Below are positions 17,345 to 54,747 of a DNA stretch of 64,000 bases, one piece after another (positions within the stretch are counted from its first letter, which is position 1; each line of letters starts with the position of its first letter). The notes below the pieces were generated by a model. It saw only the letters and a list, made by a program, of their open reading frames with translations, had not been told where the DNA came from and did no database searches. The stretch covers positions 32,001 through 96,000 of the forward strand of contig JBFOMH010000019.1 of the NCBI GenBank assembly GCA_040830765.1, read 5' to 3'. The DNA is from Puniceicoccaceae bacterium. GTDB lineage: Bacteria > Verrucomicrobiota > Verrucomicrobiia > Opitutales > Oceanipulchritudinaceae. The position numbers were made by a program, and so were the translations under genes.

Positions 17345-18991
17345 TCATCTGGGAATATAGACCCATCCGAGGCCAGCAAAGGCTGTGCTTTCAGGGATGT
17401 ATAGCCAGGCTCCCAAACTCAACGACCAGATCCATGGAGCAGCATCGACGATGACCCAACCCAACCAGTCACCAGTATCAGCGTAGCTCCCATTGACGAT
17501 TGGGAACTTCCCCCAACTTGCCCCTCCATTAGTTGACTCGATTACAACGCGGTGGGTCATGTCGGCTTCAAGCTGCACCGAGCTGATATAGGTCTTCCCA
17601 CCATGGAAGACCTCAATGTTGTATACGCCCTTAAAGCCACGGTCAGATTTTCGGCCCATTCCATCCGTTAATCCCTCGAAATGGGTGTGGTACCGGATGC
17701 GGTGTAGATAATACCACACCAGGCCATTGAGTTTGACGGTGCCATCGTAGAAGCACATGGAATGCTCCTCCATCCGCATGTAGGTCCAGGCGAATAGCCC
17801 GTCCACCAATGGATGGCTGTAATAGGTCGTCAGCACCTCCTCCGTTACGCGGGCCCGCTCCTCCTCAGTGAAGTCGTAAGGGTAGAAATTTGTTTCAGTG
17901 TTGTCACGCACCTCGAATTCCGTCCCAACCATCGGCAAGCCATAGATGGAACCAAAATCCTCTAACCGATCGTAGATAACTTCAGGATCCGGATGCTCAA
18001 ATTTGAACCGGCTCTGGAAGCCGATGCGGCTTAGGGGCCCTCCGTCAGCGATGATCCGGTTGATGTTCGTCTTATACTGACCTGAACGCGTTTCGTAATG
18101 ACCCGGGTCCAGCGAACTCGACCGGGCGGAAATGATCTGGAACTCATTAATGAGGAATTGGCAATCCGGCTGGACGGCATTTTCCGCGGCGATCCGGAAC
18201 CACTCCGCCATCTGGTCATAGCCGAGAAGCTCCTGCACCCGGTAGTTGCTGAGGGTCTCGTTGATGACATCCCACTCATAGACACCCCACAGGGAAGCCC
18301 ACTCCGCAATCATGGCATCAACGTTGGCCTTCAATGTCGTCTTCAGTGCATCAATGGTAGCTTGCGGCTTACCGGTGGCAATCGCCGCCTCAACGGCTTC
18401 CACGTCGGACAGGATGTCCGCAGGAAGGTGGTTGTTATTCTCATTGCCTGGCCAGATGAGCAGGTGTCCGCGAACCGGTAATTCGTTTGACTGTGCCCAC
18501 TCCAGGAATCCCGGCAAGAATTGTTCATTGCCCGCACGCAGCTTGGGCTTGAAACCGTTGCCTAGTCCGGCGGCATTGTAAAGCTTGAGGAACAAATTCC
18601 TGTAGCCCTCGGTTGTAAATCCATAATTGGTCAGGATGCTCCTCTCATTGTTGAAGTCCTTCACGCTCATGACTCCGCCAAAGCGGAAGGCATTGCTGGC
18701 CAGGTTAACCTCTACCATTACCCCTTCAACGGGAAAGCCCTGTTGATCCACGACCTCCACCGACAAATTGGCCTTGCGGTGCGACTCAATCCGCTCCTCG
18801 GCCTCTGTTCGCCATTGAGGCAAAGGTCCATCCGGTTTGGCTATCGCTCCAAGGAGCTGCTTCTCGGATTCACTGAGGACCACACCAAGTTCCCCTTCTA
18901 TCTGGTTCACCTCTTCCTGCGTCAACGGGGCACCAAGGACCGGGTAGCAAAGAAGCGCAACCAGGAGCAAATGTATGTGGTACAACTTCAT
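17345..18991 (-). CDS. Secreted GH10-family glycoside hydrolase with Trp-rich C-terminal module
   Basis: Signal peptide MKLYHIHLLLVALLCYPVLGA; VRGHLLIW, WDVINE (acid/base), IGFQS and GTEFEV (nucleophile) motifs. Confidence 0.8.
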   Translation of the reverse strand: MKLYHIHLLLVALLCYPVLGAPLTQEEVNQIEGELGVVLSESEKQLLGAIAKPDGPLPQWRTEAEERIESHRKANLSVEVVDQQGFPVEGVMVEVNLASNAFRFGGVMSVKDFNNERSILTNYGFTTEGYRNLFLKLYNAAGLGNGFKPKLRAGNEQFLPGFLEWAQSNELPVRGHLLIWPGNENNNHLPADILSDVEAVEAAIATGKPQATIDALKTTLKANVDAMIAEWASLWGVYEWDVINETLSNYRVQELLGYDQMAEWFRIAAENAVQPDCQFLINEFQIISARSSSLDPGHYETRSGQYKTNINRIIADGGPLSRIGFQSRFKFEHPDPEVIYDRLEDFGSIYGLPMVGTEFEVRDNTETNFYPYDFTEEERARVTEEVLTTYYSHPLVDGLFAWTYMRMEEHSMCFYDGTVKLNGLVWYYLHRIRYHTHFEGLTDGMGRKSDRGFKGVYNIEVFHGGKTYISSVQLEADMTHRVVIESTNGGASWGKFPIVNGSYADTGDWLGWVIVDAAPWIWSLSLGAWLYIPESTAFAGLGWVYIPR

Positions 18992-19183
18992 CGTTAACTT
19001 CACATTGAGGACAATTACATCCAATTTGTGTAGAGTTAAATGCAATGATATCCTATCGCCATTAAATGAATTACCGTACTAAGTGGTGCGTATTTGCAGT
19101 ACAATTCTTAATGATATAATTGTGAACTGGCATTGTCAAATGAGGTTCACCAAGGGAAATTAGTGCTATCAATCCTCCGCATA

Positions 19184-38889: not shown

Positions 38890-39765
38890 ATGAAGAAAAC
38901 CTACTTACTTATACTCCCTCTTATTCTCCCAGCCCTAACCTTTTCCCAACCGGTCCAGTTGTGGGAGTTCAACGACGCGGCGGGAACCATCCTTGAAGAA
39001 ACAGTGAATACCGGGACTCCCGGGTCGGCTGTCTGGAGCGCTGGATTCGGAGCCAGCACAACGAATGGAAGTGGCCTGTTCATCATCAATGATGCGGACG
39101 GCAATGCCTTCAAGACAGCCCCGATGGGAACCGGCGAGGGCATGTTGACCTATGAATTCATCATTCACTCATGGGACCTTGATGAACAGAATGATCCGGC
39201 AGCCCAATCCTTCCGCAATTTCGGGGTTCGACTTCGGGATAATGGTGCGGGCAGCAATGTTATGAATTTCCAGGTCCAACAGCAGGGAAATGGCAACCTG
39301 CGCTTTCGCATTTCCGACAACAACGGCATAACCAACCAGGTCGTTGGTGCTTATGACGGATTGCCGATGGTCAGCACAACTATTTACACGGTCCAGTTGA
39401 TGATTGATACGGCAACAGGTGCATGGACGCTTAATATCAATAATGATACGGCGATCGCGTCCGGCACGGCCATAGTCGGCAACCTAGACACGCTGAATTT
39501 CTATAAACAGGGTGCATACGGTGGTGGTTCCACCCCAGATTTTGTCGCCATTGAAGAGATTTCCCTGAGTGGGCCAGTGGCCAGTGTGACGTGGGCCGGC
39601 TACGATGTCGACGACCTGGGCTGGGCCAATACAACGCCGTGGCTCGGTTTCGTGAATGTCCTTGCTGATCCCTGGATCTGGTCGGCCAGCATCAACAACT
39701 GGATGTACATGCCGGAAGAAGGCGTGGGCGAAGGCGGCAGTTGGGCCTACGTTCTTGGCCAATAG
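38890..39765 (+). CDS. Secreted beta-rich protein with Trp-rich C-terminal module
   Basis: Signal peptide MKKTYLLILPLILPALTFS; body aligns by eye with the PEP-CTERM protein at 53938..54747; C-terminus aligns with that of the GH10. Confidence 0.8.
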   Translation: MKKTYLLILPLILPALTFSQPVQLWEFNDAAGTILEETVNTGTPGSAVWSAGFGASTTNGSGLFIINDADGNAFKTAPMGTGEGMLTYEFIIHSWDLDEQNDPAAQSFRNFGVRLRDNGAGSNVMNFQVQQQGNGNLRFRISDNNGITNQVVGAYDGLPMVSTTIYTVQLMIDTATGAWTLNINNDTAIASGTAIVGNLDTLNFYKQGAYGGGSTPDFVAIEEISLSGPVASVTWAGYDVDDLGWANTTPWLGFVNVLADPWIWSASINNWMYMPEEGVGEGGSWAYVLGQ

Positions 39766-48459: not shown

Positions 48460-49440
48460 ATGGATAACGGCGAATTCACCCTGGAGTTTGAGAAACCGCT
48501 GCGCGACCTGCAGCTGCGCCTGGAAGAGCTGATGACGGCCTCCGAGGAGCAGAATTTTGACGTTTCCGCAGAGACGGAAGCCATACGCAAACGGCTTGAG
48601 GAGACCAAGCGGGACATTTACACGCACCTCACCCCATGGCAGCGGGTCCAGCTGGCGCGGCACCCGAAGCGGCCCTATTCGCTCGACTACATCAATGCCA
48701 TCTTCACGGGTTTCCAGGAATTGCACGGCGATCGGAGCTATGGCGACGATCAGGCACTCATCGGGGGAACCGCCTTCTTTGACGGCCAGCCTGTCATGAT
48801 CATCGCTCAACAGAAGGGCCGTGACGTGAAGGACAACCTCCGCCGCAACTTTGGCATGCCACATCCGGAAGGATATCGCAAGGCCCTGCGCCTGATGCAG
48901 ATGGCCGAAAAATTCAACCTGCCGATCATCACTTTCATCGACACCAAGGCGGCCTATGCCGGAGTCGGCTCGGAGGAGCGCCACGTTTCCGAGGCCATTG
49001 CCCGCAATCTGCGCGAAATGGCCAATCTCAAGGTGCCCATCATCGGGATTATCATCGGTGAAGGGGGCAGCGGCGGCGCCCTCGGGATTGCCGTGGTCGA
49101 CAAATTGCTCGTTCAGCAGCACGCCTATTACTCGGTCATCCCCCCGGAAGGCTGCGCTGCCATCCTCTGGCGCGACCGGAAATATGCTGAGACGGCGGCC
49201 AACGCCCTCAAGCTGGGGGCCAAGGAGTTGCTTGAACAAGGTATCGCTGACGAGGTGGTAGAGGAACCCTTGGGGGGAGCCCACAGGGATCCGGAAATGG
49301 CTTCTGAAGCCCTCCGAAAAGCGATCACCAAGAACCTTTCCAAGCTGAAGCGTCTCAAGACCGAGACCCTCCTCGACAAGCGCTACGAGAAGTACCGCAA
49401 CATGGGCGACTTTATCGATCCGGCGGCAACTGAGGCCTAA
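48460..49440 (+). CDS. accA: Acetyl-CoA carboxylase carboxyltransferase alpha subunit
   Basis: LEFEKPL, ARHPKRP, ELHGDR, NFGMPHPEGYRKALR, IGEGGSGGAL and EPLGGAHRD motifs. Confidence 0.97.
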   Translation: MDNGEFTLEFEKPLRDLQLRLEELMTASEEQNFDVSAETEAIRKRLEETKRDIYTHLTPWQRVQLARHPKRPYSLDYINAIFTGFQELHGDRSYGDDQALIGGTAFFDGQPVMIIAQQKGRDVKDNLRRNFGMPHPEGYRKALRLMQMAEKFNLPIITFIDTKAAYAGVGSEERHVSEAIARNLREMANLKVPIIGIIIGEGGSGGALGIAVVDKLLVQQHAYYSVIPPEGCAAILWRDRKYAETAANALKLGAKELLEQGIADEVVEEPLGGAHRDPEMASEALRKAITKNLSKLKRLKTETLLDKRYEKYRNMGDFIDPAATEA

Positions 49441-52400
49441 TCCAGTTCCAGGAAGCGCCGCAGAAATACCCGCTCCGTGGCGGGCAATTGGAACGATTCG
49501 ACGCTCCAGTCAATCGTGCTGTCAATCGCTGAAACAGTCGTGCCGAGGGACTGAATTTCCGACCAAGCGGAAAGGTCCTCAGACCAGAAGTACCGGGGCC
49601 GGACACGCTCGGAGTCCCGTGTCTGATGGCCGAAAGCTATCCGCCACAAGCCTTCTGGGCTAAAGTCTTCCAGGACAACCGAATAAGGCGATATATCGGG
49701 CATTTCCGGATTGGTATTTTCCCAGAACTCATGCACGTTGGTACGGCCGTCAAAGTCGGTATCCGCCTGTGGCAAGGCGGCCAAGCCGGTGAGGGATGTT
49801 GCTGCCAACCAGGTATCAAGTGGGCTTAATGTGACCGTGAGGCTGAGGCTGATGTCGAGACTGGCACCGAGGGGATCCGCCACCTGCAATTCCAGCAGGT
49901 CGGTTCCGTCATCCTCTCCCCCCGGGGTTCCCTGCAAGCGGCCGTCCTTGAAAATCACCAGCCAATCCGGTCCGGATATCTTTCTGAAAATAAGCGGATC
50001 GGCATCCGGATCGGTAAAGTGACTTGAGAGATCCGCCTCCATGGGAACATTCGTTGATGCCGAGAGGGTTGCTGGTGGCGGACTAACTTCCTCCGGTGCA
50101 CGGTTAAGCGGGCCCTTGGCCACCCGCAGAAAGGATTCATTTGGTGAACCCCTCGCGGTAATGTCGGCCCGGGAGTTGGTGGTCTCGGTGATTGCAAAAC
50201 TGTAGGTGCCGTTACCGGTAATGTGGCTACTGACATCCGCCACTGCCCATTCACCGGAGGTGGCCGTGACACTGGCCAAAAGCGAACCGATGACCGGAGC
50301 CGTGTTCCAGGTCAGCGTGCCTTCACTCCATGCATTTTCGACTGCATGGATTTCAAAGGTTCCGTTGTATCCGAGGCTTTCCACGTAAAGGTGCAATTGG
50401 GCACTGTCCGGCGGTTCGGAAAGGTCAGTGACGGAATATTTGAAAAACGCATATCGCCCAAAGTCGGATGTATCGGGGTCCCGCACTTGGACTGGGTTGC
50501 GGCTGCCATAGTTGGTATCTGGATTCTGTTCGTTGATGAAGGTGTCCCCGGTGGCAGTGAACTCAGACACACCGCCCCCCGAACCCATCTTGCGAACCGC
50601 CAGCTCGGCCGTGGAGAAGGCAACAATACCATCAGCGTCTGTGACCGAAAGGCTGAGGGAAGCGGGCCCGAGATGGGATTCATCCGGTGTGCCGCTAAGC
50701 AGGCCCTGCGGGGACAGGGAAACCCATGCCGGACCGGAGAGCATGGCAAAGGTAACGGGTGGCTTTCCGCCTTCCCCTAGCCAGGTGCTTAGGTCATCCT
50801 TGTAAGCCAGTCCGGCATACCCATCCGCCAACTGGAGCAGATCTGTGGTAAAGCCAATGGTAGACCGGAACTGGAGGGAACCAAACTCCATGTAGCCCCT
50901 TTCCGTGGGCGAAACCCCGGTCAGGCCAACAAAATGTCCCCCGAGGTTCTCCCAGGTGAATTCGGCCAGGAGAAACGTGTTTGCCGCATCATTCGAGCCA
51001 AAGATCTTCAATTGATCGCCTGTGCGCTGGATGCGAAGAATAGCAACTGCCGCTGTCACTACCCCGTCCCACACAAAGCTATCCTCCAGGGCTGGCGAGC
51101 CTGCCTGTGACCGGTTGCGGATGCGCACGGTTCCCCCGGCATCCATCGTCACGGATAGGGACCGGGCGTAGGGGGTCAGTTGTTCACGCAGGTTGATGCC
51201 GGCCTCTCCCAGACCCATGACATCCTCCACGGAAACGGATATCGTGTAGTCATCATCCCGATACTGGGCTTGCAGCGGGAGGTTGTCCGATGCTCCGTCG
51301 GAGAGGCTGCCCCCGTTTATGGCCCAACCGAGAATTCCATCGAAGCGGTCAACCACGTAATCGGCATCAACATCGCCTACCGATCCCGGCAAAAGGCCGT
51401 ATCGGCTCCAATTCGGGAACCCAGGCTCGGGCTCAACTGTGAGGTTTAGTTCAGCGCTGTCAGTTTTGCCCGATTGGTCCCGCACAGTGTAAGTCAAGAC
51501 CTCCCCACCCAGCTTCCCGGGGATGGGTTTATAATGGATTCGGTTTCCAACGATAGTGACGGTTGCCAGGTTACTAGGGCCGACGGAATCAATAGCCAGG
51601 CCCTCCCCCTCATCATTGAGGAGAACATGAATGGAGCGCGTTTCGGATGCCCTCAGGCGGACGGTGTCGTCTGTAGCTTGCAGCGGCATCGGCCAATCGG
51701 CCCCCATGGTCGTGGCATTGACCGTGGACGCGGTTTTCCAGCCGCCCATGTTATGGGCAATAACAGAATAGCTGTACAAGCTGCTGCTCATGAGGCCGCG
51801 GTCACGGTAGCTAGTTGCATCGGGTGGCGTTACATGGATCTCCTTGAAGTAGGATTCACCCGGACCCTTCCGCATGATGATGAAGGCTGTTTCGTTGCTG
51901 GAATTGTCGGTCCAGGACAGATCGATAACGCTGCGGGCAATCGGGGTTGCGGAAACTGAACTGGGGGCAGACTGCGGTGCCAGGGGAATAGTCATGTAGC
52001 TCTCCAGGTTGCTCACTTCCGTCGACCAGTTGTTGGTTGACGGCGTCGGGACCTTCACTCCGGCATCATTTCGGATGCGGACATACTCGGTCAGCATCTC
52101 GTTGGCCAGCGTCGGCATGGAATCAAAGAGATCGGTTGTTTCCCCCGGATCGGCAACGAAATCATACAGCTCCGCAAAATGGCGATTGATATGGTAGGCC
52201 AGCTTGTAGCGGCCTTTCCGGTACGCGCCCATGGTTGTGCTGCCGGTGCCGTCGCTGATACCGGTAAAGTGATGCGCAGTTTCCGTCCGGGGGGCGAGCG
52301 CGCCATCGATCACCGCTGGCAGGAAGCTGATGGAATCGATGTGCTGGGAAGGCACCTCGGGGACACTGCCCATTTCCAAAAAGGTCCTGTAGAAGTCAGC

Positions 52401-53783
52401 ACCATGGACAAACGCCTCGGTTCTCATACCGGCCTGGGTCACACCGGGCCAGTAAACAATCAATGGAATGCGCAGCCCGCCGTCGTAGCACCAGGTCTTG
52501 CCAAGGCGGAAGGGAAAATTGCTGGTCGGGAATTGGTCCGGAGCGTTGTTCTTGTCCGCGTCAAAGGTGCTCTTTCCACCATGGTCCGAGCTGATGACGA
52601 TAATTGTCCTGTCGGCGATGCCCTGCAGTTCCAACTCTTCCCTTAGTCCGGCCAGGCTGTCATCATAGCTCTTCATCATCGCGGCATAGACAATGTTGTC
52701 CTGCCAAATGCGCACATCGGCCGTGTAGTCCTCAACCAGCTGGCTTCCACCCGGATGGTAGCTGAAATCGACATTGTCCCGCTTCTGGGTAAAGTAGCTA
52801 ACATCCGCCGGCTTGGCCTCCAGGGGTGTATGCACCGCGTAGTGGCTCAGGATCATGAAAAAGGGCTGGCCGGCATGGTTGGTCATATGATCGGAGATAA
52901 AGCCCCTTGCCTCGGAAGTCAGGCGATCGGTCAGGTACTCATCCGCATTGGCTGCAGGTCCGAGGTTGGGCAGATTGTAGGAAAGTGTTCCGGGATCCGG
53001 GAAGTAACTGTTGTTTGGAGCACCGTATTCTCCCGCGGCAATGCTGACATCATAGCCTTGGTGCTCCGGAGCCTTCCCTTCTGCTTGTGATCCAAGATGC
53101 CATTTGCCGATAAAGCAGGTCCGGTAGCCGCCGGCCTGCATAGCCTCTCCAACAGTAATCTCCGACGGATCGATCCCGCCCCCACTGCCAATGGCCTCCG
53201 GACGAAAATCATACATGCCAGTCTGCAACGAACGCCGCGCCACCACGCAGCGTGGTCCGGAAGCGTAGGCGTTGGTAAAGGTCACGGCCTGGCTAACAAG
53301 GGTGTCCAGAGCAGGGGTCTCATGGATCGTCGGGCCATCTGTCGCCTCTTCCCGCAGCGCCACGATGTCCTTGTAGCCCATGTCATCCGCCAGCAGGAAA
53401 ATGATGTTCATCGGCTCAGCCGCCTCGCCACTCACCGGGCCGGCCCAGGCGGATTCACCAGCCGCGTTGAAGGCCCGGACTCGGAACTCCGGCGAAACCC
53501 CACTGGTGTCCCCCGATACCAACAGCAGCTGCGTGTTCGGGCCCAGTTCAGCGATCTTGACCCAGCTGTTCCCCTCGTTGCGCTCTATCTCAAGGCCTGC
53601 CTCATCCGCTGCCCGATCTTCCCAACGGAGGAGCCAGGTTCCGGCTCCGGCAGGGGTGACAGTCATCTCCCGGGGACCAGCAGGTGTCCCCAAGGCAAGG
53701 ATTTCGGGAGCTGAAAATCCGCTACTGGCTGGAAGCGCTAAAAACAATGAAGCAAGAAGAGATATCGGACTATGCCATCTCAT
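49437..53783 (-). CDS. Large secreted multidomain sulfatase (FN3-sulfatase-FN3-Ig-like-beta-sandwich-Ig-DNRLRE/CBM96-like-Ig-C-terminal module)
   Basis: NIIFLLADDMG, CVVARRSLQTG, GKWHLG, HYAVHTPL and SSDHGG motifs; FN3 (FRVRAFNAAGES); Ig repeats (SGPAWVSL..G.LSGTP); DTFINE...NYG...WSEGTLTWN. The start could be 53858. Confidence 0.85.
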   Translation of the reverse strand: MRWHSPISLLASLFLALPASSGFSAPEILALGTPAGPREMTVTPAGAGTWLLRWEDRAADEAGLEIERNEGNSWVKIAELGPNTQLLLVSGDTSGVSPEFRVRAFNAAGESAWAGPVSGEAAEPMNIIFLLADDMGYKDIVALREEATDGPTIHETPALDTLVSQAVTFTNAYASGPRCVVARRSLQTGMYDFRPEAIGSGGGIDPSEITVGEAMQAGGYRTCFIGKWHLGSQAEGKAPEHQGYDVSIAAGEYGAPNNSYFPDPGTLSYNLPNLGPAANADEYLTDRLTSEARGFISDHMTNHAGQPFFMILSHYAVHTPLEAKPADVSYFTQKRDNVDFSYHPGGSQLVEDYTADVRIWQDNIVYAAMMKSYDDSLAGLREELELQGIADRTIIVISSDHGGKSTFDADKNNAPDQFPTSNFPFRLGKTWCYDGGLRIPLIVYWPGVTQAGMRTEAFVHGADFYRTFLEMGSVPEVPSQHIDSISFLPAVIDGALAPRTETAHHFTGISDGTGSTTMGAYRKGRYKLAYHINRHFAELYDFVADPGETTDLFDSMPTLANEMLTEYVRIRNDAGVKVPTPSTNNWSTEVSNLESYMTIPLAPQSAPSSVSATPIARSVIDLSWTDNSSNETAFIIMRKGPGESYFKEIHVTPPDATSYRDRGLMSSSLYSYSVIAHNMGGWKTASTVNATTMGADWPMPLQATDDTVRLRASETRSIHVLLNDEGEGLAIDSVGPSNLATVTIVGNRIHYKPIPGKLGGEVLTYTVRDQSGKTDSAELNLTVEPEPGFPNWSRYGLLPGSVGDVDADYVVDRFDGILGWAINGGSLSDGASDNLPLQAQYRDDDYTISVSVEDVMGLGEAGINLREQLTPYARSLSVTMDAGGTVRIRNRSQAGSPALEDSFVWDGVVTAAVAILRIQRTGDQLKIFGSNDAANTFLLAEFTWENLGGHFVGLTGVSPTERGYMEFGSLQFRSTIGFTTDLLQLADGYAGLAYKDDLSTWLGEGGKPPVTFAMLSGPAWVSLSPQGLLSGTPDESHLGPASLSLSVTDADGIVAFSTAELAVRKMGSGGGVSEFTATGDTFINEQNPDTNYGSRNPVQVRDPDTSDFGRYAFFKYSVTDLSEPPDSAQLHLYVESLGYNGTFEIHAVENAWSEGTLTWNTAPVIGSLLASVTATSGEWAVADVSSHITGNGTYSFAITETTNSRADITARGSPNESFLRVAKGPLNRAPEEVSPPPATLSASTNVPMEADLSSHFTDPDADPLIFRKISGPDWLVIFKDGRLQGTPGGEDDGTDLLELQVADPLGASLDISLSLTVTLSPLDTWLAATSLTGLAALPQADTDFDGRTNVHEFWENTNPEMPDISPYSVVLEDFSPEGLWRIAFGHQTRDSERVRPRYFWSEDLSAWSEIQSLGTTVSAIDSTIDWSVESFQLPATERVFLRRFLELD

Positions 53784-53878
53784 AACATCACCCACCATTC
53801 TTGCCGCAGAACCCCAAAAAACGAAGGAATAGAACAGTGAAATCCTGTCCGCAACCACTGAATTCTGTCCCCTGTTTC

Positions 53879-53937: not shown

Positions 53938-54747
53938 TCAGCGACCAGTGCGGCGGTAGAAAACAAATCCCAAGGCCAGGAGACCAGTCAGGAAGGCAAA
54001 AGTGCCCGCCTCCGGAACCACAACACTCAATCCCATTTCGTCAACACTCACGGAATTCGCAGCACCCGCCCAGGCGCCGCTTTTGACATAAACCAGTTGC
54101 CCGATGTCAGTGCCGTTGAAATCCGAGAAGGAATGGGTTTCAACTCCATCCACGAGATAACGGACTGTATTGAGATCAAAATCAAACTCGACGGAAACTT
54201 CAACGGAAGTCGCACTGGCAAGACCCAGTGTGACGACCTCCCGGAACGCGCTTCCAGAATCAAGGGAAGTTGCTCCTCTCACCCGGACGACCGAGTCCGA
54301 TTGAACATTCCAGATAATCTGGGCAATTGAGTTGGAACCTCCAGAGTCATTGACAGCAAGCTTCCACGTATCTCCGACACTTGCCGCATCCATGTTCCAG
54401 GAGTTAAAATTCACGGAAAGGATGTATTTTCCAGTCGTTACTGGTGCATCGTAGATGTTGTTGTCATTGGCATCGTTCGGACCCAGCGCATCCGGAAGCT
54501 TGCGGGTGGTTGTGCCGCTATCGCCAGCAAGCACGAATAGTCCTGCACCATCGGCTATATCATTGAAGCTGGTTGTGTTGAAGTTCCAGCTGGAACCCCA
54601 GGAACCGGAGTTGGTGGCATCCCTCAAGCCCGCTCCGCTCGAATCTGAATCAAAGGTCCAATATTCGAGCGCGGTGATGATTTGGGCACTGAGCGCACCG
54701 GCTATCAGGCAGGCACTTAAGGTGGTAATCGCGGTTTTAATTTTCAT
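53938..54747 (-). CDS. PEP-CTERM sorting-domain protein
   Basis: Signal peptide; C-terminal VPEAGTFAFLTGLLALGFVFYRRTGR (VPE motif, TM helix, Arg cluster). Confidence 0.88.
   Translation of the reverse strand: MKIKTAITTLSACLIAGALSAQIITALEYWTFDSDSSGAGLRDATNSGSWGSSWNFNTTSFNDIADGAGLFVLAGDSGTTTRKLPDALGPNDANDNNIYDAPVTTGKYILSVNFNSWNMDAASVGDTWKLAVNDSGGSNSIAQIIWNVQSDSVVRVRGATSLDSGSAFREVVTLGLASATSVEVSVEFDFDLNTVRYLVDGVETHSFSDFNGTDIGQLVYVKSGAWAGAANSVSVDEMGLSVVVPEAGTFAFLTGLLALGFVFYRRTGR

Follow-up and report, generated by a model that had tools for sequence, protein, structure and literature searches.

Two proteins encoded in the window, the whole stretch of 64,000 nucleotides analysed here, are homologous forms of one probably secreted jelly-roll passenger, fitted with two different C-termini (Table 1). 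One of them (protein B) carries a PEP-CTERM-type tail, and the other (protein A) a Trp-rich beta module of 57 residues, which fills the same slot as PEP-CTERM, starts at an exact swap junction and recurs in the same way in two more body families. This module is an autonomous and so far unnamed domain, found in one verrucomicrobial family. As for its role, we lean to a non-covalent surface-retention or assembly domain standing in the PEP-CTERM slot, and not to a cleaved sorting signal, a reading to which we give roughly even credence.

Table 1. Features of proteins A and B and of a second gene with the Trp-rich tail (window coordinates).
Feature	Positions	Strand	Basis
ORF A, 291 aa, from signal peptide through jelly-roll body to Trp-rich tail and stop	38890..39765	+	ORF read; three homologues with equal layout
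Signal-peptide-like N-terminus of A, residues 1-20, MKKTYLLILPLILPALTFSQ	38890..38949	+	From the sequence; model pLDDT <50; putative cleavage site
Body of A, residues 21-232: predicted beta-sandwich of concanavalin-A-like lectin/glucanase type	38950..39585	+	hhalign to B family, AF2, Foldseek
Tail of A, residues 233-291: a single Trp-rich unit of the as yet unnamed module	39586..39762	+	HMM matches in 55 genome ORFs; AF2 pLDDT 92.9; no Pfam/NCBIfam family
ORF B, 269 aa, from signal peptide through homologous body to PEP-CTERM-type tail and stop	53938..54747	-	ORF read; 13 homologues
Body of B, residues 22-243, homologous to A body	54019..54684	-	hhalign and MAFFT alignment
PEP-CTERM-type tail of B, VPEAGTFAFLTGLLALGFVFYRRTGR, Ala instead of second Pro	53941..54018	-	Column-by-column alignment with the VPEP tails of homologues
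Second tail gene: GH10 enzyme (PF00331), 566 aa, one terminal Trp-rich unit at ~17348-17524	17345..19045	-	HMM and Pfam

Direct comparison of the two proteins by BLASTP gives a modest signal (E 1e-6, 26% identity), which covers residues 1-140 only and includes the signal peptides, and when every stop-to-stop ORF in the genome was searched with the A body in jackhmmer, A itself was the sole match. The homology of the A and B bodies is established by the comparison of profiles. With signal peptides and tails cut away, four A-type and twelve B-type bodies align in hhalign with a probability of 98.2% and an E value of 3.6e-14 over 191 columns, a match that runs from end to end (1-205 of 206 and 1-214 of 216). 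The preliminary description had aligned A with B by eye over most of their length, and this significant body similarity bears it out, as all five of its segment pairs fall in register in a MAFFT alignment of the 16 sequences, in which eight columns are invariant (W25, D29, N40, G42, W95, R138, R140 and G208). The two families diverge right after a common '...ISLSG' / '...MGLSV', from where the A family continues into the Trp-rich module and the B family into (V/I)PE(P/A) followed by hydrophobic residues and a basic terminus; the C-terminus of A reads '...SLSGPVASVTWAGYDVDDLGWANTTPWLGFVNVLADPWIWSASINNWMYMPEEGVGEGGSWAYVLGQ' and that of B '...MGLSVVVPEAGTFAFLTGLLALGFVFYRRTGR'. The Trp-rich tail is present on all three relatives of A (P0002-P0004, with 73%, 68% and 42% identity) and terminates 4/4 A-type proteins. 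B-type proteins terminate in PEP-CTERM: most of the 13 relatives of B bear (V/I)PEP ahead of a membrane stretch and basic terminal residues, one of them, from a Puniceicoccales bacterium, carries the NCBI name PEP-CTERM protein, and a profile search added two further PEP-CTERM members to the family.

A third kind of C-terminus is seen in P0018, a member of the B family without PEP-CTERM. By look, it resembles the end (DTDFDG...EF...DLSAW) of a 1473-aa protein of the window, a resemblance discarded after a non-significant BLASTP comparison (E 0.30). This large protein (49437-53858, minus strand) combines sulfatase, fn3, Big_9, CBM96 and cadherin-like domains and is encoded immediately downstream of B, in the same orientation, within a stretch rich in sulfatases. 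The gene of A is flanked by an MFS permease with a small PGPGW membrane protein on one side and by two ABC exporter genes on the other.

No Pfam family matches the body of A or that of B. In NCBIfam, the choice-of-anchor V model (NF041895, choice_anch_V) gives B 15.8 bits against a cut-off of 42 (E 0.011) and leaves A unmatched. The AF2 model of A has a mean pLDDT of 66, with most of the body between 70 and 90, and shows a beta sandwich. A Foldseek search with this body yielded 455 PDB chains at E <= 0.001 (best 5ly8, E 1.4e-7), and the matches comprise CBMs, L-type lectins, PL7 lyases, GH16 enzymes and galectins at TM values of 0.4-0.57, those to Emp46/47, GH16 and PL7 reaching 0.5-0.57 when TM is taken by target. 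At the level of the fold, and on a model of middling confidence, the predicted A body is of the concanavalin-A-like lectin/glucanase type. Protein A is probably a secreted jelly roll that binds glycans or acts on them, because its body model groups with concanavalin-A-like lectins, CBMs, and GH16 and PL7 enzymes.

PEP-CTERM is an exosortase sorting signal, and the genome contains three exosortases (PF09721) that score over the cut-off (142, 135 and 89 bits). The last 26 residues of B follow the PEP-CTERM layout, with a PEP-like motif (VPEA), a hydrophobic stretch (GTFAFLTGLLALGFVFY) and a basic cluster (RRTGR); neither PF07589 nor TIGR02595 matches B at E <= 1. Among the relatives of B, P0007 (79% identity to B) reached 16.6 bits, P0013 22.8 and P0009 13.9, the cut-off being 16, and a precomputed PF07589 match is present in both P0009 and P0014. 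The motif of B is VPEA, as compared to VPEP in its relatives, and B was alone among the proteins tested in being missed by the PEP-CTERM models.

The same exchange of ends was searched for in other proteins by masking the tails and comparing the bodies of all tail ORFs with those of 20 PEP-CTERM-like ORFs (21 had been picked by pattern, and one was dropped as false). Two clear families were found besides A/B, in both cases between neighbouring paralogs with 57-65% identity. In the first, a protein with the Trp-rich tail (C12_62474) matches its PEP-CTERM neighbour (C12_63596) at 57% identity over 215 aa; in the second, three tail proteins (C34_11799, C34_17558 and C34_18490) match the neighbouring C34_16525, which ends in VPEP-TM-RR, at 60-65% identity over ~250 aa. 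In both paralog alignments, drawn from this one genome, the two kinds of end start at an identical column. TIGR02595 recognises C12_63596 (17.7 bits) and four other PEP-CTERM ORFs tested over its cut-off of 16, a set in which C34_16525 is not listed. Moreover, the two ends were never seen together in one frame, either in the 55 tail ORFs of the genome (0/55) or in the non-terminal cases (0/12) among the best 150 of 1053 clusters of the worldwide search described below. The idea of one passenger family with two alternative C-termini, drawn at first from A and B, is supported by the exact junction and by its recurrence in two further families.

The Trp-rich tail also stands at the end of four HAF-repeat proteins (L003, L019, L025 and L037; TIGR02913, 46-101 bits). 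HAF repeats typically occur on PEP-CTERM proteins and, if this rule applies, these four would be a further case of the swap between PEP-CTERM and the Trp-rich tail.

A similar arrangement is known for the choice-of-anchor passenger domains of NCBIfam and Pfam, which, in the available part of their description, are single extracellular domains followed by alternative C-terminal anchors, namely LPXTG, PEP-CTERM or T9SS (bioRxiv 10.1101/2023.03.06.531300). On that partial account, the A/B body resembles them in being one extracellular domain with alternative ends and differs from them in belonging to no named family, whereas the Trp-rich tail falls outside the anchors listed there.

An HMM built from five tails retrieved 54 ORFs of the genome, and a profile made from 54 units retrieved 55. 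The last unit lies at most 10 residues from the stop in 46/55 frames, 40 of them with a single unit and 6 with a double one. Five other frames show an extra 34-39 residues after the unit, which are half-unit-like, and in the remaining four the units are internal or N-terminal, far from the end: two pectate lyases have the unit just after the signal peptide, one frame, which runs off its contig, has two units before a PelZ-like lyase domain, and another has two units before a CBM9. A full unit with a partial one behind it, the latter corresponding to the last hairpin only (profile ~26-57), was observed in L045, L036, L042, L048, L052, L047 and L038. Gly-rich linkers precede the unit, and no conserved cleavage motif was found there. 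By eye, the N-termini of the tail proteins are mostly signal-peptide-like; a heuristic for signal peptides, too loose to be given much weight, accepted 51/54 tail ORFs against 188/400 control ORFs. Neither Pfam in 53 tail proteins (E <= 0.01) nor NCBIfam in 29 of these 53 (E <= 0.001) offers a family that covers the tail.

The passengers of this module are very diverse. Among the enzymes there are GH10, GH16, GH88 and GH95 glycoside hydrolases, pectate lyases, chondroitinase B, heparinase, sulfatase, FGE-sulfatase and GDSL proteins, whereas CAP, multihaem cytochrome, RCC1, LRR, cadherin and HAF-repeat proteins, and likewise trypsin-like proteins, are found among the other carriers; in 26/53 tail proteins the passenger has no Pfam family at all. 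This wealth of hydrolases, lyases and sulfatases invites the reading that the tail is a carbohydrate-binding module, which would target the enzymes to algal or plant polysaccharides and not to the cell, and an aromatic-rich, small, all-beta, tandem-repeatable unit that can occupy either end of a protein, as CBMs do, would suit that role. However, the multihaem cytochrome and the RCC1, LRR, CAP, HAF-repeat and trypsin-like proteins have the tail too, small paralogs that are not enzymes bear a cell-surface sorting signal in its place, and real CBMs (CBM6, CBM9 and CBM96) occur beside it in the same proteins. No Pfam CBM family and no solved fold matches the tail either, and a carbohydrate-binding role appears unlikely to us. 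Indeed, no match of the tail to a known binding module was obtained, and its internal position, which the preliminary description had counted together with such a match as a sign against a terminal signal, does occur, although in a minority of the frames (4/55).

Worldwide, 1053 clusters (at 50% identity) contain the module at E <= 0.001 among 1.84 billion proteins. In the best 150 of these clusters, a set biased to doubles, which score higher, 85 end in two units and 53 in a single one, and in 12 the position is non-terminal (in 9 of these, far from the end), so that 138/150 are terminal when at most 8 residues are allowed between the last unit and the end. In the non-terminal clusters the units precede CBM9, fn3/purple-acid-phosphatase, Ig, lyase or FGE-sulfatase domains. 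Tandem pairs are mostly joined by linkers of 6-9 residues, and the two units of one protein share 43% identity, as compared to 31-32% for first or second units across proteins, which indicates that the unit duplicates readily and that there is no fixed first or second type. In the ESM Atlas, only unnamed Verrucomicrobiota clusters appeared as look-alikes, and one cluster with a tail-like end has PF22494 (choice_anch_I) in 57% of its members. A search for loci with a single tail gave one actinomycete locus, which was rejected as spurious, being due to an exact 8-residue pattern and not to a relative.

The taxonomic range of the module is narrow. In a sample of 301 genomes spread evenly over the phylum, it was found in the genome itself and in the 5/5 other sampled members of its own family, but in 0/295 genomes from 59 other families; two families of the same order have it in 0/21 and 0/26 genomes. 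The preliminary description, in so far as it pointed to something uncharacterised in this lineage, is supported by this distribution and by the lack of any Pfam or NCBIfam name. Inside the family, the tail was found in 32/37 genomes (25/27 of those of good quality), with 2 to 75 matches each, and the five tail-negative genomes are 69-92% complete. Presence varies even within a genus, in which one genome (G302, 97% complete) has 11 tail matches and two others (G303, 91%, and G301, 69%) have none. In two tail-free genomes of the family, GH95 homologues stop where the enzyme domain stops and bear no tail at all, which indicates that the tail is an optional add-on.

With an alignment of 54 rows, AF2 models the unit as 60 residues, all beta and devoid of any hydrophobic helix, with a pLDDT of 92.9 and a pTM of 0.77. 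Foldseek detected nothing significant for this model in the PDB (best E 3.9), and the best result of VIA-align against 48,161 chains was a Z of 3.1, to unrelated chains. OCRE domains and propeller blades were discarded as candidate folds, their weak VIA-align rows lying within the noise. Choline-binding or cell-wall-binding repeats (PF01473 and kin) have no Pfam match to the tail, and the sole structural hint, the choline-binding domain 1gvm in Foldseek, is not significant (E 7.3, TM 0.26).

When two copies of the unit were modelled together, a symmetric dimer was predicted with a score of 0.59 (3 controls: 0.13 at best); the three runs share at least 100% of their contacts, and the pLDDT of the partner is at least 92. 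The score mark is reached by 20/30 proteins solved as one-chain pairs and by 1/23 solved as single chains, counts that hold only roughly here since the prediction was made with a custom alignment. The predicted interface is formed by the last strand (residues 49-60) together with residues 19-22 and 34-39, and its conservation (0.47) is not higher than that of the rest of the unit (0.50). With small beta domains, pairing along edge strands is sometimes an artefact. The prediction passed its controls and supports a pairing of the units through their last strand, short of proving it. Both this predicted dimer and the frequent tandem copies could be accommodated by a domain for oligomerisation or stability alone, with no role in localisation. 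Such a domain is very improbable in our judgement, as it would leave unexplained both the alternation with PEP-CTERM at the same junction and the occurrence of the module on 55 unrelated exported carriers, with no evident cytoplasmic ones.

The preliminary description had gone further and proposed that the module is a C-terminal sorting or anchoring signal equivalent to PEP-CTERM. The shared slot is indeed there, and both ends occur on the same passengers from the same start column, exclude each other and are found on Sec-exported proteins of very varied function (TIGR02595 and PF07589 for PEP-CTERM, PF09721 for exosortase). However, PEP-CTERM is a signal of ~25 residues in which a motif is followed by a membrane helix and a basic terminus, whereas the Trp-rich tail is a soluble beta domain of 57 residues, without a hydrophobic helix, which may be doubled or internal, and to our knowledge it has no processing enzyme, unlike PEP-CTERM. 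Instead of the features of a short signal of the PEP-CTERM type, we find an all-beta unit with 6 tandem pairs and 4 non-terminal cases among 55 frames. The sorting part of that proposal is accordingly unsupported in its original form, and anchoring or retention is the better reading, on account of a self-folding domain that is doubled in 85/150 of the best clusters, is internal or N-terminal in 4/55 frames and far from the end in 9/150 clusters, and has no recurrent gene beside it as a candidate processing enzyme or translocon.

A different kind of signal, namely a genuine secretion or sorting domain at the C-terminus, as in T9SS, would be read by an outer-membrane machine of the family, and the tail might then be removed or covalently attached. 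The very strong C-terminal position of the module (46/55 frames, 138/150 best clusters) speaks for it, as do its exclusive and interchangeable use with PEP-CTERM and its range of one family, as expected of a machine specific to the lineage; the C-terminal domains of T9SS, according to the part of the literature that was available, are also folded and beta, with very diverse cargo. Indeed, those of Bacteroidota (PF18962/TIGR04183; type B TIGR04131) resemble the Trp-rich tail in being folded, beta, C-terminal and lineage-restricted, in occurring on dozens of unrelated exported proteins per genome and in having many CAZyme carriers. The Trp-rich tail differs from them in showing no sequence or fold match and in being shorter, tandem-repeated and sometimes N-terminal, and PF18962 and TIGR04183 are absent from the 53 tail proteins searched with Pfam (E <= 0.01) and the 29 searched with NCBIfam (E <= 0.001). 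Tandem doubling is common, units precede catalytic domains from N-terminal or internal positions in 4/55 frames and elsewhere stand before CBM9, fn3 or FGE-sulfatase domains, and the Gly-rich linkers hold no conserved cleavage motif, all of which argues against a secretion domain. The gene neighbourhood does so too, as clustering of 255 ORFs around the tail genes gave no recurrent family, the largest one having 8 members and lying near 7/55 tail genes. For these reasons, a secretion domain is, in our view, rather unlikely.

Dockerin, SLH, choline-binding repeats, WxL and GW are small modules of non-covalent retention, mostly C-terminal yet independent of position and often repeated, which occur on many unrelated secreted proteins and act by binding and not by cleavage. 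The Trp-rich tail is like them in being small, mostly C-terminal, repeatable and present on many unrelated secreted proteins, and unlike them in having no sequence relation to any of them and in its host, a diderm verrucomicrobium. Non-covalent retention or assembly is preferred here because the tail folds by itself, repeats, works at either end, follows Gly-rich linkers and has no recurrent partner gene. According to this retention pathway, the proteins would be exported through Sec, to judge from their N-termini, and would reach the cell surface, as suggested by the kinds of passenger and by the equivalence to PEP-CTERM. There, the tail may hold them by non-covalent binding, with either a component of the envelope or further tails as the partner, and in the model the units would pair via the last strand. 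No candidate ligand or receptor was found for the tail, and its strong C-terminal bias counts against retention insofar as a C-terminal secretion signal would equally be expected to show it.

A more daring version of the retention reading, which we regard as a distinctly long shot, is that of a homotypic zipper tag. Pairing of last strands, in proteins with one, one-and-a-half or two units, would co-assemble the ~55 exported enzymes, lectins and cytochrome into a scaffold-free network on the surface, which, in one verrucomicrobial family, would replace the covalent anchoring by exosortase in a cellulosome-like assembly with no scaffoldin. Mutual pairing of the units, if it occurs, would amount to a new principle by which enzymes co-assemble on the surface of a diderm.

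Marine Opitutales play a major part in degrading the sulfated polysaccharides of algae, and we know of no account of how they keep their many exported enzymes on the cell. One unnamed module on about 55 exported proteins of a genome, exchangeable with PEP-CTERM and restricted to one family, offers a concrete handle for testing this question. A full-text literature search, limited to the portions of text accessible to it, gave no description of the Trp-rich module. The new elements of the present analysis are the proof by profiles that A and B belong together, the finding that the unit is a repeat, its restriction to one family some of whose members lack it, the GH95 homologues without a tail, and the prediction that units pair with each other. 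The tail deserves a family model of its own, as its proteins are now annotated as unrelated hypotheticals.

Some minor observations concern the tail genes themselves. Six of them are clustered within 30 kb of contig C5 (G000:C5:57000-87500), where a 70-aa frame made of the tail only is probably a remnant, and three adjacent ones stand at the start of contig C19 (G000:C19:1-8034). Finally, among passengers that are otherwise commonly CAZymes, an unusual one is a 549-aa multihaem cytochrome c (L005, G000:C17:118028-119674) with Cytochrome_cB and MtrC/MtrF-like domains.
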